From Nitrospirota bacterium (GTDB taxonomy: Bacteria > Nitrospirota > Thermodesulfovibrionia > Thermodesulfovibrionales > SM23-35), in the NCBI GenBank assembly GCA_014859105.1, contig JACUUX010000005.1, forward strand, positions 1,759 through 65,758: a stretch of DNA of 64,000 nucleotides, given 5' to 3'. The notes under the pieces are model-generated. The model did no database searches, was not told the DNA's origin, and saw nothing but the letters and a program-made list of their open reading frames with translations. Below are positions 5,465-56,727 of this stretch, one piece after another. A program made the translations under genes and the position numbers. Every line of letters begins with the position of its first letter. Position 1 is the stretch's first letter.

Positions 5465-6706
5465 TCAAGGATTATAATACTTTTTTTTCTTTTTCAGATA
5501 CTCCTGTTCAACATTTCCACCGAAATCATGAGGATATTTGTATCCGGTTCCGTGTCCCAGTTTCTTAGCACCGGGATAATGGCTGTCTTTCAGATGATCC
5601 GGGACTTCCATTGTTTCTTCAGTTGAAATATCTTTCAAAGCAGCTTCGATTGCTTTATAACAGGCATTGCTTTTGGGAGCTTTTGCGATGTAAATAGTTG
5701 CCTGTGCAAGAGGTATCCTCGCCTCAGGCATGCCGATAAACTCTACGGCCCTCAGTGCAGCTGTGGCTATGATCAATGCCATGGGGTCTGCATTGCCTAC
5801 ATCTTCAGAGGCACATATGACAATGCGCCTTGCAATGAATCGAGGGTCTTCACCTGCATAAATCATTTTTGCGAGGTAATAAATGGCAGCATCCGGATCC
5901 GATCCTCGCATACTCTTTATGAAAGCAGAGATTGTATCATAATGCTGGTCGCCTTTTTTGTCATAGACAACTACTTTTTTCTGAATCGATTCTTCTGCTG
6001 TTTGAAAATTTATTTTTATCTTTCCCTGTTCATCAGGCGCACTTGTTAGTGCGGCTATTTCCAATGCTGAAAGAGCCTTTCTCGCATCTCCGTCAGACAT
6101 TTTAGCTATGTGTTTCAACGCTTCTTCATGAATTGTGATATCCATATTGCCCAGTCCCCGCTCTTTATCCTGTAGTGCGTAATTCAAGACTTTTAAGATA
6201 TCTTCTTCAGATAAAGGCTTTAATTCAAATACCTGGCTTCTTGAGAGGAGAGCTGAATTGACATAGAAGAACGGATTTTCTACTGTTGCGGCTATAAGTG
6301 TGATATTACCTTCCTCAACATCAGGGAGGAGAGCGTCCTGCTGGAGTTTATTGAACCTGTGTATCTCATCAAGGAAGACGATGGTATTTATCCCTTTAGA
6401 CTTTCTTGCCCTGGCATCCTTTATAACTTTCCTGATTTCGTCAAGCCCGATTGTAGCCGCATTGAGCCATCCGAAATGGGATTTTGTCTTTTCAGCAATC
6501 ACACGTGCAAGGGCTGTTTTGCCTGTTCCGGGAGGTCCATACAGGATAACCGATGAAATCCTGTCCGCCTCTATAGCCCTTCTCAGTAATTTGCCCCGAC
6601 CGAGGATGTGTTCCTGCCCGACGTATTCTTCGAAGGTTCTGGGACACATTCGAAAAGCAAGAGGCAGTGAAGAAGGAGAAAAGGCTTTCTCTTCAAATAG
6701 TGCCAT
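5465..6706 (-). CDS. rarA: replication-associated recombination protein A (AAA+ ATPase)
   Basis: GPPGTGKT Walker A, FLDEIHRFNK, and a MgsA C-terminal domain (PDAAIYYLAKMI, EDVGNADP). Confidence 0.9.
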   Translation of the reverse strand: MALFEEKAFSPSSLPLAFRMCPRTFEEYVGQEHILGRGKLLRRAIEADRISSVILYGPPGTGKTALARVIAEKTKSHFGWLNAATIGLDEIRKVIKDARARKSKGINTIVFLDEIHRFNKLQQDALLPDVEEGNITLIAATVENPFFYVNSALLSRSQVFELKPLSEEDILKVLNYALQDKERGLGNMDITIHEEALKHIAKMSDGDARKALSALEIAALTSAPDEQGKIKINFQTAEESIQKKVVVYDKKGDQHYDTISAFIKSMRGSDPDAAIYYLAKMIYAGEDPRFIARRIVICASEDVGNADPMALIIATAALRAVEFIGMPEARIPLAQATIYIAKAPKSNACYKAIEAALKDISTEETMEVPDHLKDSHYPGAKKLGHGTGYKYPHDFGGNVEQEYLKKKKKYYNP

Positions 6707-6919
6707 GAATTATGTTTGCTTATATGGGAGAAAATTTTCAAGCTATAGAAGGCGTGATAGGAATGTTCAGGACAATATTTCCCAACATTGCAATAAAATT
6801 GTATTATTTCTAATAAAAGGCGAAACACAAATATTCAGAATAATACTTTATAGCTAATGTAATGTCTCTCAATTAAGTGGAGTAATCAAGGAGATGATTA
6901 GTAAAGCTGTTCTTACTCT

Positions 6920-15133: not shown

Positions 15134-16312
15134 CTATTTTACCTTCCGGCTTAGTTTATCCCTTCCAAAAGGTGAAAGTAGCCTGAGTTCTTTTATTATC
15201 CCCGGTATAATCTCAATGACTTTGTCTATCTCTTCTTCTGTATTGTATCTGCTCAAAGAAAATCTTATGGAACCGTGGATTGCCGTAAAAGGCACACCCA
15301 TTGCCCTTAATACATGAGAAGGCTCCAGAGAGCCGGATGAGCATGCAGAGCCTGATGATGCACATATTCCATATTCATTGAGTCTCAGAAGTATAGCCTC
15401 GCCCTCAACATATTCAAAACTAAGACTCGTGGTATTTGGAAGCCTGCTGTTTACGTCGCCATTAATTCTGACATCAGTACATAATTTCAAAAGTGAAGTC
15501 TCAAGCTTATCCCTCAATCTTTTAAGATAAACGATTTCTTCATCAAGATTGTTCCTTGCCAGCTCGCAAGCTTTGCCGAGTCCTATAATAGAAGCCACAT
15601 TTTCTGTCCCCGCCCTTCTCCCTTTTTCCTGATGGCCGCCTATTATATAAGGATAGAACCTTGTGCCTTTTCTCACATACAGCGCCCCCACTCCTTTAGG
15701 GGCATGCAGTTTATGGCCTGATAAGGAAAGCATATCTACAGGGAGTTTCTTTAAATCTACAGGGATCTTTCCAACTGCCTGAACCGCATCTGTATGAAAT
15801 AGTATTCGTCTTTCCTTGAGTATTTCTGAAATCTCCTCGAGTGGAAAAATATTGCCCACCTCGTTATTTGCATACATTATTGTTACAAGTAAAGTATCAC
15901 CCTCTATGGCTTTTAATAAATCGTTTATATCCAATTGGCCGTGATTATTTACAGAAAGAAAGGTTATTCTGAAACCTTTTCTCGCAAGATGTTTACAGAA
16001 ATTCCTTACTGCCGGATGTTCAACCCTCGTGGTAATGATATGTCTTTTATTTGGAAATGACTCAACAGCACTCATGATTGCAGTATTATCGCTTTCTGTA
16101 CCGCAGCTGGCGAAAATTATTTCTTCTGGTTCTGCACGAAGGAGTTCAGCTGTTCTTTCTCTCGCTTCTTCTATCTTTTTGTAAAGCTGCCCCCCGAAGG
16201 TATGCATGCTTGAAGGGTTACCGTAAAATTCCTTCAGGTAGGGAAGCATCTCTTCAATTACTTCGGGTGCAATTCTCGTTGTTGCATTGTTGTCAAGATA
16301 TATTGTGTTCAT
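15134..16312 (-). CDS. nifS: cysteine desulfurase NifS
   Basis: PLP Lys context SLSGHKLHAPKG and catalytic loop SSGSACSS. Adjacent to nifU. Confidence 0.9.
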   Translation of the reverse strand: MNTIYLDNNATTRIAPEVIEEMLPYLKEFYGNPSSMHTFGGQLYKKIEEARERTAELLRAEPEEIIFASCGTESDNTAIMSAVESFPNKRHIITTRVEHPAVRNFCKHLARKGFRITFLSVNNHGQLDINDLLKAIEGDTLLVTIMYANNEVGNIFPLEEISEILKERRILFHTDAVQAVGKIPVDLKKLPVDMLSLSGHKLHAPKGVGALYVRKGTRFYPYIIGGHQEKGRRAGTENVASIIGLGKACELARNNLDEEIVYLKRLRDKLETSLLKLCTDVRINGDVNSRLPNTTSLSFEYVEGEAILLRLNEYGICASSGSACSSGSLEPSHVLRAMGVPFTAIHGSIRFSLSRYNTEEEIDKVIEIIPGIIKELRLLSPFGRDKLSRKVK

Positions 16313-17139
16313 TGTTCTTCTACGATTACTTCTCCGCTGACCAGCTCCCTGAGTTTATCCTGGATGCCACTTAGTGTTACACCTGACATGATACATCCTG
16401 TACACATACCACGAAGCGCAACGATTACCCTGTCGCCGTCAATATCAATAATTTCTATGTCACCGCCGTCAGCCTGCAACCCGGGCCTTATCTCTCTTTC
16501 TATAATCTCCTGTATAAGGGCAATCTTCTGCAGGTTTGTGAGCTTTTTAGTTTTTACAGGTTTTACAGGTTTTTTTAGAGACCAGATATCGCTTAGAATT
16601 GCTCCGATTTCCTCCCTGCATTCGCCGCATCCTCCACCAGCTTTTGTATAATTGGTAACCTCATCCACTGTTGTGAGATGGTTTTCTATTGCCACCTTTC
16701 TTATTTTTTCTTCCGTCACGCTAAAACACTCGCAGACAACCCTGCCCTCTTCTTCAACAACCCCTGGAATACCTTTATAATTGGCAACAGCAGCCTCGAG
16801 CGCCTCTCTTCCCATTACTGAGCAGTGCATTTTCTCCTTTGGTAGTCCACCAAGAAATTCTGCCAAGTCCTGATTTGTTATCTGCAAAGCCTCATCTACT
16901 GTTTTTCCCTTTATACGTTCAGTGAGGGCAGATGAACTTGCTATAGCGCTCGCACAGCCGAATGTCTGAAATTTTGCATCTATAATTTTATGTGTTTCCC
17001 TGTCGATTTTAAGGGTTAATTTTAAAGCGTCACCGCATATGATGCTCCCGACTTCTCCAACCGCATCAGGATTTTCTATCTCCCCGATATTTTTAGGATT
17101 TAAAAAATATTCTCTTACTTTTTCCGTATATTCCCACAT
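16309..17139 (-). CDS. nifU: Fe-S cluster assembly scaffold NifU (three-domain)
   Basis: IscU-like N-terminus (GDALKL...FGCASAIASS), a central Cys-rich domain, and a C-terminal NifU domain (GMCTGC). Confidence 0.9.
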   Translation of the reverse strand: MWEYTEKVREYFLNPKNIGEIENPDAVGEVGSIICGDALKLTLKIDRETHKIIDAKFQTFGCASAIASSSALTERIKGKTVDEALQITNQDLAEFLGGLPKEKMHCSVMGREALEAAVANYKGIPGVVEEEGRVVCECFSVTEEKIRKVAIENHLTTVDEVTNYTKAGGGCGECREEIGAILSDIWSLKKPVKPVKTKKLTNLQKIALIQEIIEREIRPGLQADGGDIEIIDIDGDRVIVALRGMCTGCIMSGVTLSGIQDKLRELVSGEVIVEEQ

Positions 17140-17686: not shown

Positions 17687-17745
17687 GTCATGCTGCCTTG
17701 TCCGGCATCTTTCTTGAAGAAGGATTCCAGACAAGCTGGAATGAC
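17687..17745. repeat. GTCAT...ATGAC family copy 5
   Basis: GTCATGCTGCCTTGTCCGGCATCTTTCTTGAAGAAGGATTCCAGACAAGCTGGAATGAC. Confidence 0.8.
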
Positions 17746-17801
17746 AGGCGATGTAGTATTACTTATAAAATCCTTAGTTAGACTCAATTTAGGAGATATT
17801 C

Positions 17802-18089
17802 ATGAAAACCTGTGCCTTGTGTTGTAAACAAATCGAAATCGATAAATATTTTTCAAGAAAGTCAACCTGTCCAGAATGTGGTGGTGACCTTCATATATGC
17901 CTTAATTGTAAGTTCTATTCTGAAACAAGTCACAATAAATGCATCGAGCCAAAGGCCGAATTCCAGAGATCAAGGGAAAAAGCCAACTTCTGTGATTATT
18001 TTGTTTTCAGGGAAGGTCTTCATTCCTCTGAAAATGAAAAAGGAAAGACAAGAAGAATGTTAGATGAATTATTCAAAAAACCCTCTTGA
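17802..18089 (+). CDS. Cys-rich zinc-ribbon protein, unknown function
   Basis: 95 aa with CxxC...CxxC...CxxC spacing and a GGAG RBS. Confidence 0.55.
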   Translation: MKTCALCCKQIEIDKYFSRKSTCPECGGDLHICLNCKFYSETSHNKCIEPKAEFQRSREKANFCDYFVFREGLHSSENEKGKTRRMLDELFKKPS

Positions 18090-18095
18090 CATTTT

Positions 18096-18287
18096 CTAAA
18101 TCCCCTTCTTTTCCTTGTAAGCCCTTACAATTGCTTTTAAAATTTCGGGGTTAGCAATCCGGTAATATAAATTAACTATTTTCTCTTCACCATAAAAAAG
18201 GTGAACAAAATCCTCGTCTTCCATTAAATAAAATCCTGGCGGCAGTTCCACTAATAAATTTTTGTCTGGCACTCTCCACATCATCAT
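18096..18287 (-). CDS. hypothetical small protein (63 aa)
   Basis: ORF only; no recognisable motif. Confidence 0.3.
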   Translation of the reverse strand: MMMWRVPDKNLLVELPPGFYLMEDEDFVHLFYGEEKIVNLYYRIANPEILKAIVRAYKEKKGI

Positions 18288-18568
18288 ATTAATTGTATGA
18301 TTTTTCTAACCTATTTATTAAAAGACAACCGCCTATAAGTCTGTATAGTTATATTTTTCACTCGAAAAATACCCTTTCCGACAGGCGAAACGCCTGTTCT
18401 ACTTATATAAGTTTATCGCCCCCAAAGTGGTAGAATAGCTGTCTCGGCTGTCTTATGTTCAATTTTTATCCCCCATTGTGTCCGCTTGCCAGAATTCACA
18501 TTTTATGTTCTAAAGCACATTTGTGTCCCGGTGTTATGTTGTTAGAGATATCTTACATACAATCCCAT

Positions 18569-18598
18569 TTGATGTCAATAAAAAATGTAAGATATAAT
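18569..18598 (+). promoter_or_regulatory. candidate sigma-70 promoter giving a leaderless transcript, bracketed by an 11-bp inverted repeat
   Basis: TTGATG, 18-nt spacer, TATAAT (18593..18598), with the ATG 7 nt downstream and no SD. The inverted repeat is ATATCTTACAT (18548..18558) / ATGTAAGATAT (18585..18595). Confidence 0.45.
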
Positions 18599-18604
18599 CA
18601 ACAT

Positions 18605-19231
18605 ATGACTATCGGAAGATACTTCAAGGCAAAAAGAAAAGAGCAAAGATTATCTCTACGTAACGCATCTAAATTGTCCGGGATATCCCATGTCCATGTA
18701 AGAGACATTGAAAATGACAGAATTAAACCTGCATTTGAAAAGGTTATAAAACTTCTCAAGGCGTACAATGCAGACATACAGGACTTTCTCTCAAAAACAG
18801 GTTCTATCTCTCCACGGGATATTGAAACTGTTGAATCTGAAAAACTATACAAAATACCTGTTTTTTCATCGGTTGTAGCAGAAAAATCAGGAACGGCTTA
18901 TGGTTCATCAAAACAGGATAAAGTTTCTGAATGGATTGGAAGCGGCATAGAAGATCATCGTGTCTTTGCACTGAGGGTCAGAGACGACTCTATGGTCCCC
19001 GAGTTTCATGAAGGCGAAATTATTATAGTAAATCCTCATATAAAGCCGGAGCATAACGATTATGTTATTGTTAAAAACGATCAAGGTGAGATTGCTTTCA
19101 AGCAGCTAAAAAAGTATGGCAAAACAACTGTTTTTCATCCTTTAAATCCTAAATATCCGGACATACAGTTATCAGCCAGACAGAAATACACGATTATTGG
19201 TAAGGTTGTGAAAAAAGAGAAGATATATTAA
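18605..19231 (+). CDS. XRE-HTH / S24 peptidase repressor (CI/LexA-like)
   Basis: N-terminal HTH (LSLRNASKLSGISHVHVRDIE). C-terminal S24 domain with Ser (RDDSMVPEF) and Lys (AFKQLKK). Start at MTIGRYF fits the usual HTH domain start. Confidence 0.75.
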   Translation: MTIGRYFKAKRKEQRLSLRNASKLSGISHVHVRDIENDRIKPAFEKVIKLLKAYNADIQDFLSKTGSISPRDIETVESEKLYKIPVFSSVVAEKSGTAYGSSKQDKVSEWIGSGIEDHRVFALRVRDDSMVPEFHEGEIIIVNPHIKPEHNDYVIVKNDQGEIAFKQLKKYGKTTVFHPLNPKYPDIQLSARQKYTIIGKVVKKEKIY

Positions 19232-19297
19232 AAATCCTCTTATTTTTGTCTGAAATTGAAATATAATCTTAGATGTGCTATATTTGTGGCTGGAAAT

Positions 19298-19651
19298 ATG
19301 AGAAACAAGCGTCGGCATAAGCGGGTTCTAATGTCAGGAATTGCCACACTTAAATTCAAAGAGAAAGGCGAGAGCCACTTAATTCAAGCCGTGATAGCTA
19401 ATATTTCTTTACAGGGAACCGGATTGTATTCCTATGATTCAATAAAAGTTAGAAAATGTGTTTCAATTACTATTAATTTCATATCTCTAAATGGCGAAAT
19501 AAGAACTGATTCTGTTGAAGGTCGTGTTATATTTAAGAAAAAAATAGGTAAAACTTATTTTATAGGGATCCAATTTCATGAAGAAATAAACGCTAAAAAT
19601 CAGCCCTCGTTGTTCGACCACATCCAGGGAACCATTACATGGGACGTATAA
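19298..19651 (+). CDS. PilZ domain protein
   Basis: RRHKR motif near the N-terminus and a D/NxSxxG-like ANISLQGTG. Confidence 0.6.
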   Translation: MRNKRRHKRVLMSGIATLKFKEKGESHLIQAVIANISLQGTGLYSYDSIKVRKCVSITINFISLNGEIRTDSVEGRVIFKKKIGKTYFIGIQFHEEINAKNQPSLFDHIQGTITWDV

Positions 19652-19818
19652 TGATAGTTGTTACAAAGTGATTAACTGCCAATTCTGTTTTTACAAATGC
19701 AATAATTTCTATGTATATGACTCGGCATCACAATAAATTCATCTAATCCCGCATTCTCAAACAAAACAGGCAATTTATTCCACAGTACAAAGGCATAAGA
19801 CAACTCTCAAGAAATCCC

Positions 19819-19917
19819 ATGAGATCATTTAAGGAAATTAAGGACAATTATAATTTTACTTCTGATGAAGAACGCAGACTCATGAGGCTGAAACCAACCG
19901 TTTTTTGCCGGGCTTGA
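19819..19917 (+). pseudogene. 32-codon remnant resembling the N-terminus of a globin-coupled (protoglobin) sensor
   Basis: MRSFKEIKDNYNFTSDEERRLMRLKP matches the usual L..YGFTeeDe.lLr.l.P opening of such sensors, then stops. Confidence 0.3.
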
Positions 19918-19942
19918 CAAATAAGAATTAATACTATATAGT
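19914..19942 (+). promoter_or_regulatory. strong sigma-70 promoter for perR
   Basis: TTGACA (19914..19919), 17-nt spacer, TATAGT (19937..19942), 7 nt before the ORF start. Confidence 0.6.
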
Positions 19943-19949
19943 TACAACT

Positions 19950-20393
19950 ATGTATAAGCGGGTAGCGAAAAATGAAATGATGGATGTCTTCTATCAACGT
20001 TCCAAAGAACATGGTCTTAAAATAACACCTCAGCGTACTGCCATTTATCAGGAACTGCTCAAGTCAAAGGATCACCCTTCTGCAGATATAATTTATAAAA
20101 GAATTGTAAAAAAGATCCCGAATATTTCGTTTGATACAGTAAACAGGACTCTCTTGACATTTACCAGGATCGGTATTATACATATTGTTGAGGGCTATGG
20201 ACAAGCCAAACGATATGATCCTGACATTGATATACATCATCATTTCAGATGCATTCAATGTAACAACATAATAGACTTTCACAACAAGAGTTATGACAAC
20301 ATAGCCGTTCCTGAAGAGATAAATAAACAATTCACGGTGATACACAAGAAGGTTGTTCTCGAGGGTCTTTGCAATAAGTGCAGAAGACCGTAA
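19950..20393 (+). CDS. perR: Fur-family regulator, PerR-like
   Basis: Winged helix followed by a HHHFRCxxC...CxxC zinc site. Lies immediately upstream of catalase and peroxiredoxin. The start could instead be an internal Met. Confidence 0.7.
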   Translation: MYKRVAKNEMMDVFYQRSKEHGLKITPQRTAIYQELLKSKDHPSADIIYKRIVKKIPNISFDTVNRTLLTFTRIGIIHIVEGYGQAKRYDPDIDIHHHFRCIQCNNIIDFHNKSYDNIAVPEEINKQFTVIHKKVVLEGLCNKCRRP

Positions 20394-20412
20394 TAATTTT
20401 TTTTCCATTTAA

Positions 20413-20427
20413 TAGTAATTATTACTA
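20413..20427. promoter_or_regulatory. 7-1-7 palindrome, candidate PerR/Fur box upstream of catalase
   Basis: TAGTAAT-T-ATTACTA is a perfect palindrome with the TAAT-N-ATTA core shared with Fur/PerR boxes. Confidence 0.5.
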
Positions 20428-20532
20428 TGTAATATGAATTGGCAATCTTAAGGAGGTGACAGTATGTTCTAAGATAATACTTTCCCAGGATTTAAATATT
20501 AAATAAATAACCGGAATAAAAAGGAGATTGCA

Positions 20533-22047
20533 ATGGCAAAGAAAAAGACACTGACTAACAATTTTGGCATGCCAGTTGCCGACGATCAGAACACCCTGAC
20601 AGCAGGCAACCCGGGGCCCGCTCTTATGCAGGATGTGCACCTTCTCGAAAAACTGGCACATTTTGATCGTGAGCGCATTCCAGAGCGCGTAGTACATGCC
20701 AAAGGGGCTGGCGCTTACGGTTACTTTGAGGTTACAAAAGACGTAACACAATGGACTAAGGCTAAGTTTCTCTCTAAAGTGGGGAAACGCACTGATTTAT
20801 TTATAAGATTTTCCACCGTTGGTGGTGAGAAAGGCTCCGCAGATGCTGAACGTGATCCCCGAGGATTCGCTATAAAGTTCTATACTGAGGAAGGAAACTA
20901 TGATATGGTGGGGAACAATACACCTGTTTTCTTCATCAGGGACCCCCTTAAGTTCGCTGACTTTATCCATACCCAAAAACGTAATCCGGCAACGAACTGT
21001 AAAGACCCTGATATGTTTTGGGATTTCCTCTCATTGACACCAGAATCCATCCACCAGGTTACTATCCTGTTTTCTGACCGTGGGACCCCCAAAACTTACA
21101 GGAACATGCACGGTTACAGCAGCCATACCTATAAATGGTATAACGATAAGGGTAAGTATTTCTGGGTAAAGTACCACTTCAAAAGCGAACAGGGCATCCA
21201 GAACCTTACCCGGGAAGAGGCGGAGATTATGAAAGGGAAAGACCCGGATCATGCCACCCGTGATCTCTATAACGCTATCGAACGTGGAGAATACCCCTCC
21301 TGGAGACTGGAGATGCAGATTATGACGCCTGAGCAGGCAGCAGATTATCGGTTTGACCCATTCGATGTTACAAAAGTATGGCCTCATGGAGACTATCCCC
21401 CTATAACGATAGGCCGTATGGTTCTGAACCGCAACCCTGAAAACTATTTTGCAGAGGTTGAGCAGGCTGCTTTCTCTCCTGGCAATTTTGTCCCGGGGAT
21501 AGGATCTTCTCTGGACAAAATGCTCCAAGGACGTCTCTTCAGCTACCACGACACCCATCGCCATCGACTCGGACCGAATTACCATCTCATTCCAGTGAAC
21601 TCTGCGAAGGGCTGCCCTATGAATAATTACCAGCGCGATGGTTTCATGCGTGTTGACGATAACGGGGGAGGCGCTCCGAACTATTACCCCAACAGTTTTG
21701 GTGGACCAGAACCAAATCCTAAAACAGGTGAACCGCCCTTTGAGGTTTCCGGTATAGCTGCACGCCATCGGTATACTCATCCCAATGATGATTTTGTGCA
21801 GCCCGGAGCATTGTATAACAAAGTAATGACTGATACTGATCGGGAACATCTTATCGGTAACATAGTTTCTCATCTGGGAGGAGCACAGAAGCGCATTCAG
21901 TTGCGCCAGACAGCCCTCTTCTATAAGGCTGCACCGGATTATGGCAATCGTGTGGCTAAAGGGCTCAATCTGGATGTGAAGGATGTTAAGCGTCTGGCTG
22001 AGATGTCTCATGAAGAAAGGGCACAAGCTACAATGTCAGAAGTCTAA
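20533..22047 (+). CDS. katA: monofunctional heme catalase (small-subunit type)
   Basis: [23 protein letters not shown], and the proximal Tyr region [14 protein letters not shown]. Confidence 0.95.
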
Positions 22048-22072
22048 AAACGATTAAATTCTCTAAGTGAAT

Positions 22073-22114
22073 AAGCTGTGGCACGAAGTATATTGCATAC
22101 GAGTGCCACAGCTT
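22073..22114 (+). terminator. 12-bp stem hairpin after catalase
   Basis: AAGCTGTGGCAC, 18-nt loop, GTGCCACAGCTT. There is no clear T-tract. Confidence 0.4.
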
Positions 22115-22252
22115 GAATGAAAGGAGGACAATATGCCACAGGAGTTTAAACCTGGTTGCGCACGACCTACCACCGGGGGAGTTGTAGGAGGTGAAAAGAC
22201 ACAGAAAGAAACTTTACAAACTGAGCAGGCAATAAAAAAGGAGGAAAAGACC

Positions 22253-22861
22253 ATGCTTCTAATCGGTCGAAAAGCACCGGATTTCACAGCTCCGGCCTAT
22301 CATAAGGGGAAATTCGTTAATTTACAATTATCAGAATATTTCGGGAAATGGATTTTACTTTGTTTTTATCCTGGTGATTTTACATTCGTTTGAGCAACAG
22401 AGCTTTCAGCAGTTGCTGAAAAGTATCCGGAATTTAAAAAGCTAGGGGTAGAAATATTTTCCATGAGTATTGACAGTGTCTTTGTACACAAGATGTGGAA
22501 CGACCATGAGCTGTCAAAAATGGTGAGAGGCGGGGTACCTTTTCCTATGTTGTCTGATACCGGTGGGAAGGTAGGAAGTATTTATGGTATTTACGATGAG
22601 AATGCAGGCGTTGAGACCAGGGGGAGATTCATCATTGATCCGGACGGAATAATTCAGGGATATGAGGTATTAACACCACCGGTGGGACGAAATGTCAGTG
22701 AATCTCTCAGGCAGGTACAGGCATTCCAGTTGGTGCGGAAGAGCAAAGGGACAGAGGCGATTCCTTCAGGGTGGAGACCTGGAAAGATGACATTGAAACC
22801 AGGCCCGGAACTTGTCGGAAATGTCTGGAAGGTATGGAAGACGAAGATGGCATTTGACTGA
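22253..22861 (+). CDS. peroxiredoxin (AhpC/Prx1-like) with in-frame TGA at the peroxidatic Cys position; candidate selenoprotein
   Basis: Track ORFs 22133..22393 and 22463..22861 share one frame. Reading through TGA 22391..22393 gives FYPGDFTFV-U-ATELSAV...SIDSVFVHKMW. ATG 22253 follows an AGGAGG RBS. Confidence 0.7.
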
Positions 22862-22866
22862 TTACC

Positions 22867-22982
22867 TTAACCCGGAAAATGCATTTAGTCCTGTAAAGCC
22901 ATACAAGTATATGAGATGCTGAAATACCCTGAACTTGATTCACGGATTGTTTCAGAATACCTACCGGCATTTTTCGGGTTAA
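22867..22982. repeat. ~116-bp element bounded by inverted TTAACCCGGAAAATGC motifs
   Basis: TTAACCCGGAAAATGCA (22867..22883) versus GCATTTTTCGGGTTAA (22967..22982). Related single motifs lie near 5172, 25914 and 37248. Confidence 0.6.
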
Positions 22983-22990
22983 CCAATAAA

Positions 22991-23024
22991 CCCCGTTAGA
23001 AGACCTTTCGCCCTTCTAACGGGG
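22991..23024. terminator. 12-bp stem hairpin between the convergent prx and ATPase genes
   Basis: CCCCGTTAGAAG, 10-nt loop, CTTCTAACGGGG. Related to the nested palindrome at 5258..5286. Confidence 0.5.
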
Positions 23025-23144
23025 TGAAGGATAGAAAATAAACTGATACGGATGTCTTATGAAACTGCCCGAGTATGTGACTCTGCATCGGAGGTCAATT
23101 TAGGTTCACTCTGGGGTCTATAATCTTTGAAGATGATAAATATT

Positions 23145-41154: not shown

Positions 41155-42840
41155 ATGAAAACTGACAGGCTACTCGATGAAATAAAGTCAAAAGTTGACA
41201 TCGTAGAATTTATATCCGATTACGTCCCTTTAAAAAAATCTGGCCAGAACTATAAAGGACTCTGCCCTTTCCACTCTGAAAAAACTCCATCATTTATGGT
41301 CAGCCAGTCCAAACAGATCTTCCACTGTTTCGGATGCGGAGCAGGTGGCGATTTGATAAGTTTCTTAATGAAACATGATAATCTGACATTTGGTGAAGCA
41401 ATACGGTATATCGCAAAAAAGGCCGGGATAAATTTAAAAGACTTTAAGTTCGATAAAAATAATACTTCTGAAAAGCGTGAAAAACTAATACAGGCAAATG
41501 AGGAGGCAATAAAGTTTTATTCAAGAAACCTTGCTGATTCAGAGACAGCTAAAACATATCTCAAAAAAAGAGGTATTGCGGAAGAATCTATTCTCAGCTT
41601 TCGGATAGGTTATGCAAACGATGAGAGAGACGGCCTTTTCAGACATATGAAGAAGATGGGATACAGCGACTCTTTGATAAAAGACGCAGGGCTCATTGTA
41701 GCAGATGGCAGAGGATACAGGGATTTATTCAGGAAACGTATCATTTTCCCGATATATAATCTGCAGAATGATGCAATCGCATTCGGAGGCAGGGTTACGG
41801 ACGATTCTCTTCCCAAATACATTAACTCACCCGAAACCGGGGTGTTTAAAAAGAGCGAATCCCTTTTCGCGATAAGCCTTTCTAAGGAGGCTATCAGAAA
41901 GAAAGGTCTTGCCATTATTGTCGAGGGATATCTTGATGCTATTATATGTCACCAATATGGTTTTAAAAATACAGTTGCACCTCTCGGAACAGCTCTCACT
42001 CCGATGCACTTGCGCAGGCTAAAATTAGTTGCCAGAAAAGTCATTTTGATTTTCGATGCTGATGAAGCAGGCATTGCTGCTGCAAGAAGGTCACTGTCAA
42101 CACTTGCTGAACTTGACTTCAGATCTAAGGTCATGTTATTGCCCCGAGGTGAAGACCCCGACAGCTTCCTCAGAAAACATGGCAACAAGACATTTAAGAA
42201 AATGCTTGCTGAGGCAATGTCGATGGTGGAATTTCTGCTTAAGACATCAAAAGGAGATAAAATTGACAATGTAAGAGAGACACTTGGTATTATTTCAGCT
42301 ATGCAAGACCTGATTATAGCGGATGAGATGTTAAATGAACTTTCTGACAGATCAAAAATCAACGAGGCTGTTCTCAGAGAGGAACTTAAAAAGATAAAAA
42401 AGAATTTAAAGTTAAGTAGCCATGCAATAGAGATGAAACCAGTCGGGACACAAATTAACAGGGAAGAATGTATTCTGCTAAGCGCTATCATCTCCTTTCC
42501 GGAAAAGGCTGATGATGTACTTTCAAGACTGGTTATTGAAGATCTGACGGATGCAAATATCAGATCGATATTAAGAAAAATTGAAGCGGTTAAAGATAAT
42601 TTAAACATAAGTACATTGCTTGAGAAGGCTGACGAGAAAGAAAGGGCACTGATTACAGAGCTTTCATTTAACCCGGGCTTTGATCCTGAACATGTTGAGA
42701 AAAATATTAATGATTGTCTGAATATCCTGAGACAACGAAAATTCGAGGAGAAAAGAAAAATCGCCGAGGAATACGGGGATATCTCACTACTTGATTCATT
42801 ATTAAAAGAAAAACGGAGGCTTATTAAGAAGGAGCGATAA
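41155..42840 (+). CDS. dnaG: DNA primase
   Basis: Zn finger [11 protein letters not shown]...CFGCG and a TOPRIM domain (EGYLD, DADEAG). Confidence 0.95.
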
Positions 42841-44399
42841 TGAAGTATAATTCTGATTACTTTGATTATTTTGAATACTACAATAAGGAAAGAGACGATC
42901 TTGATTTTGAGGCAGAAGCTGAGGATGTCGAATTAGACGAAGAAATAAAACCCTCTTTTATTGAAAGTGAAAAAGACCCGGTCCGTATTTATTTAAGGGA
43001 GATGAGTACCGTACCTTTACTAACAAGAGAAGGTGAAATCGAAATTGCTAAAAGAATAGAAAAGGGAAGAGAAAAAGTCTACAGGGTAATATTTTCAATG
43101 CCCTTCGTGCTTAAAAAACTGATTATGATGGGAAAGCTGTTCAAGAGCGGGGAAGCACCGGTTACAGATATAATTCAGGTCAGCGAAGATGACACCGAAG
43201 AAGAGCTGCTCTCGTACAGAAAGAGATTTTTTGAGATTACAAAGGAAATAGACTATTTAAATAAAAAAAGAAGATTCTACCTGAAAAGATTTAAAGAAAT
43301 TACATCCCTTATAAACTCAAAAGAAACTTCCAAAAATAAAATTACTAGGGAAAATATCAACATATATCAAAAATATATTACGATTCTCGAGGAAAACAGA
43401 AAACAGATATTAGAAAAAATCAGGGAGTTAAGATTAAAAGAGGATGTTATAACAGCATTTTCGGAAGAATTGAAGCGGACAGTTTCAGAATTGGACTCTA
43501 TTCAGAAAAAAATCTCAAATTTAAATAAAAAATGTAAAATTGTTAAATTTGATAAAGAGAGAGAACTCCAGCAGTGCCTCAAGAAGATTAAGAAAAAGGA
43601 AATTGTATTTGGCATGAAGGCTTCCGAGATCAAAAAAGCATTGAAGGTTCTTCTGGAAGGAGAAAAAAAAGTATTCGAAGCGAGAAAAGCCATGATAGAG
43701 GCAAATCTGAGGCTCGTAATAAGTATAGCAAAACGCTATTTGGGAAGAGGGCTAAGCTTTTCTGATCTTATTCAGGAAGGTAATAGCGGGCTTATGAGAG
43801 CTGTTGATAAGTTTGAATATAAACGTGGATACAAATTCAGCACTTATGCAACCTGGTGGATCAGACAGGCAATCAGCAGGGCACTTGCGGACCAATCAAG
43901 AACTATAAGGATACCGGTACACATGGTTGAAACCATTAATAAAATCACAAAAGTGTCAAGGGAGCTTGTACAGGAACTTGGCAGAGAACCGGCACCCAGG
44001 GAGATTGCCGAAAAACTGAAAATGCCTGTTGAAAAGGTAATGGCAATTTTAAAGATATCAAAAGAGCCTATTTCTCTTGAAACTCCTATAGGCGAGGAAG
44101 ACAGTCACTTAGTGGACTTCATAGAGGATAAAGCAATATTATCTCCGCTCGATTTTGCAATACAGGATGACATGAGAGAAAAAATCAATAAAATTTTATG
44201 CTCACTTCCTCCAAAAGAAGAAAAAATCATCAGAAAGAGATTTGGTATAGGCGTTGATCTGCCGCATACACTTGAGGAGGTCGGACAGGAATTCGACGTG
44301 ACCCGTGAAAGAATAAGACAGATTGAGGTAAAAGCAATAAGAAAATTGAGACACCCATCAAGAAGCAAATGGCTCAGGGAATTTATTGAAAAGCCTTGA
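42840..44399 (+). CDS. rpoD: RNA polymerase sigma factor RpoD (primary)
   Basis: Regions 1.2-4.2, [25 protein letters not shown], in the MMS operon context. Confidence 0.95.
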
Positions 44400-44472: not shown

Positions 44473-44548
44473 GGGCCCATAGCTCAGCTGGAAGAGCTAC
44501 CGGCTCATAACCGGTTGGTCCCAGGTTCGAGTCCTGGTGGGCCCACCA
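44473..44548 (+). tRNA. tRNA with CAU anticodon (elongator Met or lysidine-modified Ile2)
   Basis: Cloverleaf: acceptor GGGCCCA/TGGGCCC, D stem GCTC/GAGC, anticodon stem ACCGG/CCGGT with loop CTCATAA, T arm CCAGG-TTCGAGT-CCTGG, encoded CCA. Confidence 0.9.
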
Positions 44549-45404: not shown

Positions 45405-45801
45405 AAGTCAGAGCAGGGAAGTGGTCGCTCGGCTTTGATTTTTAATCATAGCCGAGAGGAAAGTCCGAACTCCGCAGGGCAAGGCGCTCCGTAATACGGA
45501 GTGGGGGAAACCCTAAGGAAAGTGCCACAGAAAGGGAAACCGTCCCGACTTTGTCGGAATAAGGGTGAAAAGGTGAGGTAAGAGCTCACCAGTTGGGGTG
45601 GTAACACCTCAAGCTTGGTAAACCCCGCCTGGAGCAAGGTCAAATAGGTTCCGCCTTGAGAAGGGCCCCTTCGAATCCTGACCTGCATAATGGAATCAGG
45701 GAGGCGGAACGGGTAAGGACTGCAAGAGTCTGATGGCAACATAAGACCTTAGATGAATGACCACACATATACAGAACTCGGCTTACAGCCTGCTCTGACT
45801 T
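45405..45801 (+). ncRNA. rnpB: RNase P RNA, bacterial type A
   Basis: P1 pairing AAGTCAGAGCAGG / CCTGCTCTGACTT. Conserved GAGGAAAGTCCG, ACAGAAA, GGTAAGAGCTCACC, GGTAAACCCC and ACAGAACTCGGCTTACAG. Confidence 0.95.
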
Positions 45802-52510: not shown

Positions 52511-53941
52511 TTGAAAGAAAGGGATATTTTTGAAGAGATTATAGAAATAGGCAAAAGGCGCGGAAAACTTACTTATGATGAGATAAACGATGCTGTTCCC
52601 CCGGAATATTTTTCCCCGGAAGAGTTAGAAGAACTTATGGACCTTCTGCACGATATGGGCATTGAAGTTGTAGATGAACAGGAGACTGAAAATGCTGAAG
52701 AAGTCTTAGCTTCTGAGGATGAAGAGGAATATGCTGAAACTGAGGATATTGTTCAAACATATTTCCATTCGATGTGGAATATTAAAATACTTACAAGGAA
52801 TGAAGAAATAGAGCTTGCGAAAAAATTAGAGGAAGGAAAAGAGATTATTAAAGGGATAGTTACGGCGCTGCCTTTATACAAGCAAGTCGAAGTAAGTTTA
52901 AATGGTAAAGACGAAGAAGATTCGGACTATTCAGAGGAAGAAAAAGCCGATGAAGCTCTGGAAATGAGCTTGAAAGTGCTTGACAATCTTCTGTTGAAAG
53001 TAGAAATTGCAGAAAGAAAGATTGCAAGATATGGGACTTTAAAAGATTTAAAAAAAATAATAAATCAAAAAAAGAAACAAGATATCAATTCCATACAACT
53101 TAATACCATTGCAAAAGAAGTTCAGGATGAGTATAAGCGGGTTGCATCAGAGGTTGGGATCAAGATTGATGAATTGAAAACGAAGTGGGAGAGAATAACC
53201 AGGGCAAGAACCCTTATTAGTGAAGCAAAGAATGAATTGGTAACCCGGAATCTGAGATTAGTAGTCAATCTTGCCAAGCATTATATTGGAAGAGGTCTTT
53301 CCTTTCTTGACCTCATTCAGGAAGGCAATATCGGTCTTATGAAATCTATAGATAAGTTCGACTATAAAATGGGATTCAAATTCAGCACCTATGCAACATG
53401 GTGGATAAGACAAGGAATAACGAGGGCATTAATTGATCAGGCAAAGACTATCAGAGTTCCTGTACACATGATGGAATTTTATAACAAAGTTACCAAGGCT
53501 TCCAGAGAACTTATATCGTATCTTGGAAGACAACCGAGCAAGGATGAAATTGCCAAAAAATTGGAAGTATCAAATAGAAAAATCGAGGAAGTATGCAGGG
53601 CAATACAGGATACAATAGCTCTTCAAACTCCGGTAGGAGATGATGGTTCAACAATTGAGGAGTTTATTAGTGACAAAGAAAGTCCTTCTCCATACTCTAA
53701 TGCAGAACAAAATGATATCACTGAGAAGATGTTAGAGATTTTGCAGACCCTAACCCCAAGGGAGGAGCAGATAATAAGGATGAGATTTGGTATTGGGGTT
53801 GATAGAGGCCAAACCCTTGAAGAAGTGGGAAGACATTTTTCCATCACACGAGAAAGGGTAAGGCAGATAGAAGCGAAAGCCATGAGGAAACTCAAACATC
53901 CAAGTAGGCTCAGAGCACTAAGGGCCTTAAATACCGCTTAA
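52511..53941 (+). CDS. second RpoD-like (group 1/2) sigma-70 factor
   Basis: Acidic N-terminus, [26 protein letters not shown], region 4.2 RERVRQIEAKAMRKLKHP. TTG start follows GGAG. Confidence 0.85.
   Translation: MKERDIFEEIIEIGKRRGKLTYDEINDAVPPEYFSPEELEELMDLLHDMGIEVVDEQETENAEEVLASEDEEEYAETEDIVQTYFHSMWNIKILTRNEEIELAKKLEEGKEIIKGIVTALPLYKQVEVSLNGKDEEDSDYSEEEKADEALEMSLKVLDNLLLKVEIAERKIARYGTLKDLKKIINQKKKQDINSIQLNTIAKEVQDEYKRVASEVGIKIDELKTKWERITRARTLISEAKNELVTRNLRLVVNLAKHYIGRGLSFLDLIQEGNIGLMKSIDKFDYKMGFKFSTYATWWIRQGITRALIDQAKTIRVPVHMMEFYNKVTKASRELISYLGRQPSKDEIAKKLEVSNRKIEEVCRAIQDTIALQTPVGDDGSTIEEFISDKESPSPYSNAEQNDITEKMLEILQTLTPREEQIIRMRFGIGVDRGQTLEEVGRHFSITRERVRQIEAKAMRKLKHPSRLRALRALNTA

Positions 53942-56651: not shown

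Positions 56652-56727
<76 letters not shown>

Follow-up and report, generated by a model that had tools for sequence, protein, structure and literature searches.

The subject of this study is a peroxiredoxin (Prx) gene carrying a candidate selenocysteine (Sec) codon, found in a 64-kb stretch (64,000 nt) of contig JACUUX010000005.1 from a Nitrospirota bacterium; the whole of this stretch is called the window below. Two open reading frames (ORFs), 22133..22393 (86 aa) and 22463..22861 (132 aa), lie in one frame, and retranslation of the window confirmed the initial annotation in that only the TGA at 22391..22393 separates them. Indeed, in the translation of 22253..22861 this TGA is the sole internal stop and is located within FYPGDFTFV-stop-ATE, after which the Prx sequence resumes, as had been described, and runs uninterrupted to the stop codon at 22859..22861. 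When the TGA is read as Sec (U), the segment becomes FYPGDFTFV-U-ATE, and its active-site motif, P80-G-D-F-T84-F-V-U87, follows the PxxxTxxU pattern; the UGA is thus placed exactly at the peroxidatic position, just as originally proposed. Splitting of such a gene by standard gene callers had also been anticipated, and the gene calls on a Logan assembly contig do cut it into two pieces of 86 and 132 aa. The features of this locus, which we call prxU, are collected in Table 1.

Table 1. Features at and around prxU, given as positions in the window.
Feature	Position	Strand	Remarks
Fur-family regulator, PerR-like	19950..20393	+	Pfam FUR; PerR models rank first in NCBIfam but stay under their thresholds (105 bits vs 180)
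Perfect 7-1-7 palindrome TAGTAAT-T-ATTACTA, candidate Fur/PerR box	20413..20427	.	Upstream of the catalase gene, after the PerR-like gene
Monofunctional catalase gene	20533..22047	+	Pfam Catalase and Catalase-rel; NCBIfam match; directly upstream of prxU
12-bp perfect inverted repeat	22073..22084 with 22103..22114		18-nt spacer, no T-tail; in the 85-nt gap between catalase gene and prxU
Shine-Dalgarno sequence AAGGAGG	22121..22127	+	5 nt upstream of ATG 22133; read from the sequence
prxU, full-length coding sequence (long form; thioredoxin-dependent peroxiredoxin PrxU)	22133..22861	+	242 codons plus stop; Sec at codon 87
Cys9 codon TGC, candidate resolving cysteine	22157..22159	+	Motif K-x-G-C-A-R-P-T-G-G(-P); invariant in 91 long-form sequences
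Internal Shine-Dalgarno sequence AAGGAGG	22238..22244	+	Lies within the prxU frame; 8 nt separate it from ATG 22253
Internal ATG (Met41), candidate second initiation site	22253..22255	+	The Prx domain begins here; initiation would yield a short form of 202 aa (Sec47)
Cys77 codon TGT (LLCFYPGDF)	22361..22363	+	Ten residues before Sec; invariant in 91 sequences
UGA selenocysteine codon	22391..22393	+	Residue 87 in the long and 47 in the short form; peroxidatic position of PxxxTxxU
Bacterial SECIS hairpin (predicted)	22404..22421	+	5' arm UUUCAGC 22404..22410; loop AGUU 22411..22414; 3' arm GCUGAAA 22415..22421
13-bp perfect hairpin	22990..23025	.	Separates prxU from a convergent P-type (Ca-type) ATPase gene; only the minus strand has a T-rich tail

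With the TGA translated as Cys for profile searches, the protein translated from ATG 22133 was found to match the NCBIfam equivalog model of PrxU (NF040737, peroxi_PrxU) with 415.5 bits over profile positions 2-233 of 233, well above the cut-off of 270, while translation from ATG 22253 gave 394.6 bits and covered only positions 36-233. The score for the AhpC equivalog model TIGR03137 was 185.9 bits and did not reach its cut-off of 272. In the plasmid collection, furthermore, a tblastn search hit a gene annotated as prxU on the megaplasmid NZ_CP007453.1 of Peptoclostridium (Eubacterium) acidaminophilum DSM 3953, the gene name being taken from the RefSeq-derived record; its product shares 68.6% identity with PrxU of the window across residues 1-242. 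The two proteins have in common the N-terminal motif MPQ(E/D)FKPGCARP, with that of P. acidaminophilum beginning MPQDFKPGCARP and that of the window MPQEFKPGCARP. Both genes also have UGA at the same peroxidatic column and an internal Shine-Dalgarno sequence followed by ATG, and both lack the canonical C-terminal resolving Cys. An 18-nt hairpin, UUUCAGCAGUUGCUGAAA, is identical in the two genes; the sequence after the TGA in P. acidaminophilum prxU reads TTTCAGCAGTTGCTGAAA, with these 18 nt identical to the window.

A Sec-containing Prx from E. acidaminophilum is reported in Sohling 2001, as cited in PMC13188914, so the precedent pointed to by the initial annotation holds, and the prxU gene of that species indeed carries the same TGA and the same hairpin. 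The latter review, from 2026, counts the Sec-Prx family among the characterised prokaryotic selenoproteins, apart from those “predicted with high confidence” (PMC13188914). The expectation that such proteins are rare was not supported, given that at least 597 relatives were confirmed and that a dedicated NCBIfam equivalog model exists; the PrxU family is widespread, and the gene in the window is a new, ordinary member of this known selenoprotein family. Its surroundings are nonetheless different from those of the P. acidaminophilum gene: the nearest relatives of both PrxU and the PerR-like protein of the window are, among the matches listed, metagenome-assembled genomes of Nitrospirota but not Clostridia, and a perR-like gene, a Fur-type box and a catalase gene are placed upstream of prxU in the window.

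The relatives were collected by a genome scan with one genome per species, and the best 80 of the at least 597 confirmed ones were analysed further; together with the window they make up an alignment of 81 sequences. These 80 loci are distributed over Nitrospirota, Desulfobacterota/Syntrophales, Spirochaetota, Fibrobacterota, Calditrichota, KSB1, Acidobacteriota and Anaerolineae, and the closest ones among the matches listed are Nitrospirota with 89% and 88% identity. Whether relatives keep TGA at the Sec column had been proposed as a check, and all of the 80 loci do so. When the 153 codons after the TGA were compared with the nearest relatives, the ratio of nonsynonymous to synonymous differences (pN/pS) was only 0.04-0.05, with pS of 0.65-0.83, i.e., synonymous sites near saturation; the region after the TGA is therefore clearly translated.

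These data bear on the possibility of a pseudogene, namely a Prx gene killed by a nonsense mutation from TGC or TGT to TGA at the active-site Cys. Such a change would require one base only, and the splitting of prxU by gene callers as well as the lack of any Sec machinery seen in the window would fit this idea. Nonetheless, a dead gene is highly improbable in light of TGA at exactly the Sec column in every relative across phyla, the low pN/pS downstream, no further disruptions in the window gene, the orthology to prxU as annotated in P. acidaminophilum and the covarying hairpin at the canonical distance of a selenocysteine insertion sequence (SECIS; see below), and we regard this explanation as effectively refuted. 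It is also extremely improbable that the TGA results from a sequencing or assembly error with TGC or TGT as the true codon. While single-base errors do happen in metagenome assemblies, the Logan contig of run SRR11917416, an independent assembly though possibly built on the same reads, is 100% identical across 17717..22946 of the window. Moreover, the closest relatives among the matches listed all have TGA, and the intact hairpin of the window matches the Sec-type but not the Cys-type sequences.

An alternative genetic code (table 4 or 25), in which TGA would encode Trp or Gly here, might be suspected from the databases, because the residue at the Sec column of the top 120 database proteins is W in 108, C in 9 and G in 1. 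The probability of this is, however, next to negligible. TGA is the normal terminator for 12 of the 44 long ORFs in the window, which argues for the standard code in this organism, and among the ORF pairs listed for the window no other gene-like one is split by an in-frame TGA; the loci belong to phyla using the standard code. Also, besides W and G, the column holds only the catalytic Cys in the examined matches; this Cys is encoded by TGC or TGT in a minority of homologues, and neither Trp nor Gly can be peroxidatic. The W and G are most simply explained as artefacts of gene callers that apply code 4 or 25 to TGA. Since TGA was found in 80/80 loci, it appears that the PrxU selenoprotein is systematically mistranslated in protein sets from public metagenomes. 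Taken together, TGA kept in the relatives and the translated region downstream make the pseudogene, the sequencing error and the alternative code very unlikely.

The decoding of UGA as Sec in bacteria is directed by a SECIS hairpin, and we identified a candidate immediately downstream of the TGA (Table 1). RNAalifold predicts exactly the same seven pairs, 22404..22410 with 22415..22421, and 99.5% of the stem cells are paired in the 81 sequences, with 95 cells changed on both sides; none of 500 shuffles matched this pairing, and controls slid along the alignment were only 40-70% paired. The covarying stem positions are third positions of codons: the Ser/Ala wobble pair is GC in 48, AU in 23, UA in 7 and CG in 2 sequences, and the Ile-Leu/Glu wobble pair is UA in 53, CG in 24 and AU in 2. 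One stem position thus shows four pair types. The loop is RGUY across the PrxU family, and its G and U columns are invariant in the 81 sequences. Its outer bases also covary (AU 44, GC 35, GU 1), leaving the invariant GU; the outer R and Y thus behave as if they were paired, and the loop, with only GU unpaired, would be tighter than the generic pattern.

In a few relatives, compensation in the stem changes the protein (alignment columns 27/42 and 31/38). In L031 and L039, Ala is changed to Ser together with a change of Ala to Gly, giving a U-G pair, and in L073 and L081, Glu is replaced by Asp (GAU), which pairs with an A-ending Ile/Val codon. In these four loci, the RNA structure of the SECIS appears, from the aligned sequences, to override amino-acid conservation.

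The criteria for a bacterial SECIS (bSECIS) in the model of Zhang and Gladyshev, as they are given through PMC13188914, are an apical loop of 3-9 nt on an upper stem of 4-16 bp, a G in one of the first two loop positions that is usually followed by G or U, a distance of 16-37 nt from UGA to the apical loop, and a free energy of -7.5 kcal/mol or lower. The hairpin in the window has a 4-nt loop (A-G-U-U) on a 7-bp stem, starts 10 nt after the UGA, is separated by 17 nt (22394..22410) from UGA to loop, and has a free energy of -8.2 kcal/mol; it thus agrees with the model on every point, and the energy threshold is also passed by 80 of the 81 orthologues. Like the consensus bSECIS, therefore, it is a stem-loop within the coding sequence just after UGA, with G at the second loop position followed by U, but its R-G-U-Y loop with the pair-like outer R and Y sets the family apart from the generic bSECIS. 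No SECIS family of Rfam was hit, either in the whole window at the gathering threshold or in 22200..22600 at a permissive E-value, where one chance match to a long non-coding RNA was returned.

In six Cys-type homologues, 4, 5, 6, 7, 4 and 5 of the seven stem pairs are kept, and the sole one with all seven has a GAUC loop, which lacks the GU. The constraint on the hairpin thus goes with the UGA, because none of these six retains both the stem and the GU loop. The homologue with the full 7-bp stem (L085; homologue P0040, on a Logan contig of ERR14846708), with the loop GAUC instead of GGUC or AGUU, may represent a recent conversion of Sec to Cys.

A different hairpin starting at the UGA itself, AGCAAC 22393..22398 with GTTGCT 22412..22417, had been suggested in the initial annotation. 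This does form in the single-sequence minimum-free-energy (MFE) fold, but that fold has a z-score of only -0.30 and the pairing is not conserved in relatives: 71.6% of the cells are paired in the 81 sequences, compared with 71.2% in shuffles. A hairpin downstream of the UGA does exist, therefore, but the conserved one is that at 22404..22421.

We then consider where prxU begins. While the gene had been taken to start at 22253, its coding sequence probably begins at 22133 instead, which extends the protein by an N-terminal arm of 40 residues that includes an invariant Cys. Homologues are mostly 236-242 aa long, not 202, and all 80 relatives align from query residue 1, 3 or 8 through 242. The 40 codons upstream of 22253 are in frame and stop-free in all 80 loci, most relatives have a Shine-Dalgarno-like motif ahead of the long start, and prxU of P. 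acidaminophilum is annotated at the equivalent long start as a 240-residue form. Around Cys9, synonymous sites vary freely (TGC in 44 and TGT in 36 sequences, with every one of the four Gly and six Arg codons in use), and the arm is hence considered to be translated and selected as protein, because its motif is conserved in spite of this free variation. The arm, which carries the invariant sequence GCARPTGG, is missing in ordinary AhpC/Prx1 proteins. It is thus most likely that prxU starts at 22133 and has 242 codons.

Alternatively, prxU might be a true Sec gene of which only the 202-residue short form from ATG 22253 is functional, with the upstream 40 codons being a leader or an artefact. 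The strong, nucleotide-conserved Shine-Dalgarno sequence and ATG at 22238..22255 would be in line with this, and so would the short form of P. acidaminophilum, which counts 203 aa. We nonetheless consider it unlikely, since those 40 codons are always open and in frame and encode an invariant Cys in a motif conserved at the level of the protein; also, the long start has a strong Shine-Dalgarno sequence of its own, the arm adds 21 bits to the PrxU model score, and for the type organism, the gene in the public record is the long one.

Preferring the long form does not leave the internal start without meaning. Of the 81 sequences, 77 have ATG at this position, 3 have GTG and 1 has ATT, and GGAGG or AGGAG is located 5-11 nt ahead of it (mode 8) in 78 of the 81 orthologues, compared with 14 of 485 other in-frame ATGs (Fisher p = 6e-77); the same arrangement was also seen in locus L089, in addition to L002-L081. 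In the six codons before the internal ATG, furthermore, Glu is encoded by GAG and GAA in a ratio of 95 : 19, whereas the ratio is 98 : 291 elsewhere in the arm (p = 2e-29). Because this enrichment and the GAG bias are confined to that place, the internal Shine-Dalgarno sequence appears to be selected as nucleotides rather than as amino acids, and such selection would imply two products. A short form lacking the arm is therefore probably also made from the ribosome-binding site (RBS) and ATG at 22238..22255. In P. acidaminophilum, Met38 is the equivalent of Met41 and would give a short form of 203 aa with Sec at position 47 by our count, and the purified protein is reported to have been described originally with 203 residues and Sec47. 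Members of the family with Cys in place of Sec keep the arm and, mostly, the internal start, and the two are hence a feature of the family that is not tied to Sec.

It is conceivable, although we would not yet favor it, that PrxU genes make two proteins: a long one in which Cys9 would act as the resolving residue through a selenenyl-sulfide with Sec87, and a short one, begun at the internal RBS that is conserved across phyla, that lacks the arm and would be a 1-Sec enzyme. If this is true, the two-form architecture would reconcile the size of 203 residues reported for the purified protein with the annotated form of 240 residues. In the literature searched, no description of the arm combined with an internal RBS was found, and searches on PrxU and on an N-terminal resolving Cys in Sec-Prx gave nothing relevant.

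Given all of the above, we are highly confident that 22133..22861 is an intact prxU gene and that UGA 22391..22393 encodes the peroxidatic Sec of a Prx with the AhpC/Prx1 fold; the original proposal of a Sec-containing Prx is hence supported by NF040737, the orthology to P. acidaminophilum prxU, the conservation of TGA, the strong purifying selection and the covarying hairpin. Several observations, nonetheless, weigh against parts of this interpretation. No tRNA-Sec was found in the 64-kb window by ARAGORN or Rfam, and neither selA, selB nor selD was present among about 29 scanned ORFs of the window, which gave housekeeping genes only. The search for further selenoprotein genes yielded no convincing second ORF pair split by an in-frame TGA in the 64 kb. 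As for the hairpin, the MFE of 22385..22450 folded as a single sequence is no better than that of shuffled sequences (z = -0.30, as above), the support being comparative, and the control in Cys-type homologues is a small sample of six sequences only. Regarding the arm, an AlphaFold monomer model of a natural Cys-form homologue has a mean predicted local distance difference test score (pLDDT) of 85 in the Prx core, but residues 1-40 score 39-64, the arm being flexible and undocked; the model speaks neither for nor against a resolving role of Cys9, whose function is putative, as is that of the internal start.

In terms of Sec machinery, Nitrospirae are described as carrying selC embedded in selB (PMC13188914), and the use of Sec is for this reason plausible in the Nitrospirota lineage. 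Judged from the sequence, the source organism is very likely a user of Sec. In the genome of Desulfoferula mesophila (AP028679.1; L082), whose prxU homologue is of the Cys form, a gene for a 348-aa AIRS-domain protein is found two genes downstream of the homologue at 6061..6723, and this could be selD or another member of the PurM family.

The closest solved structures to the protein of the window are typical 2-Cys Prx of the Prx1/AhpC type (e.g., PDB 4fh8, 1qmv and 1yep), which have the same fold, a core identity of about 40-50%, the PxxxTxxC/U active-site motif and the catalytic Arg in common with PrxU. Unlike these enzymes, PrxU of the window has Sec for the peroxidatic Cys, lacks the C-terminal VCP resolving Cys and adds the 40-residue N-terminal arm with its invariant Cys. 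Indeed, EAIPSGW near the C-terminus aligns with EVCPAGW of a solved typical 2-Cys Prx, and the canonical position of the resolving Cys is occupied by Ile in the window, by Ala in the type protein of P. acidaminophilum and by Thr in most relatives. The statement in the initial annotation that no resolving Cys is present is thus correct for the canonical C-terminal position, but the invariant Cys9 in the arm and the invariant Cys77 do exist.

By analogy with the canonical bacterial mechanism, SelB carrying Sec-tRNA(Sec) would bind the hairpin during translation, and Sec rather than a stop would be decoded from UGA. In the conserved PxxxTxxU pocket, peroxides would then be reduced by the selenolate of Sec87 with the catalytic Arg163. 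Since Ile occupies the place of the canonical C-terminal resolving Cys, some other thiol has to serve in recycling, and the best candidate would be the invariant Cys9 on the flexible arm; alternatively, thioredoxin might act directly. Only one experimental report on the PrxU enzyme was found in the literature searched.

With regard to the genomic context, prxU probably belongs to a peroxide-stress unit, because a PerR-like regulator, a Fur-type box and a catalase gene precede it. From this arrangement we infer peroxide regulation of the PerR type for the cluster, and the catalase gene and prxU possibly share a transcript as an operon. In the closest of the listed relatives (L002, from Nitrospirota), a PerR-like regulator with 76% identity is found directly upstream of prxU with no catalase gene between them, and a box similar to the palindrome of the window, TAGGAAT-A-ATTCTTA, is located upstream of prxU at about 5881..5895; the catalase gene may hence have been inserted into an older perR-prxU unit. 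The inverted repeat between the catalase gene and prxU could be a hairpin for RNA processing or stability or a binding site for a protein, and the hairpin downstream of prxU is likely a transcription terminator.

Elsewhere in the window, a nifS-nifU pair for Fe-S cluster assembly, above the equivalog cut-offs, is encoded on the minus strand at 15134..17139, about 3 kb upstream of the peroxide-stress cluster. Two RpoD-like sigma-70 genes are found within 10 kb of each other: that at 42840..44399 follows dnaG and passes the RpoD cut-off, while that at 52511..53941 scores below it and may encode an alternative sigma factor of group 2. A tRNA-Met gene (CAU; 44473..44548) is located just after rpoD, a tRNA-Ala gene (GGC; 56652..56727) is on the minus strand, and a class A RNase P RNA was identified at 45409..45801 with 278.6 bits, which speaks against a source in Bacillota.

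In conclusion, the locus should be annotated as one intact selenoprotein gene, not as two fragments, a pseudogene or a Trp-containing protein. The one point of wider interest is the N-terminal Cys arm combined with the internal RBS conserved at the nucleotide level, which raises the questions of which thiol recycles the oxidised selenium without the usual resolving Cys and of whether the conserved internal start gives a second isoform. Furthermore, the comparison of PrxU genes provides a clean SECIS model, supported by covariation, for the whole family.

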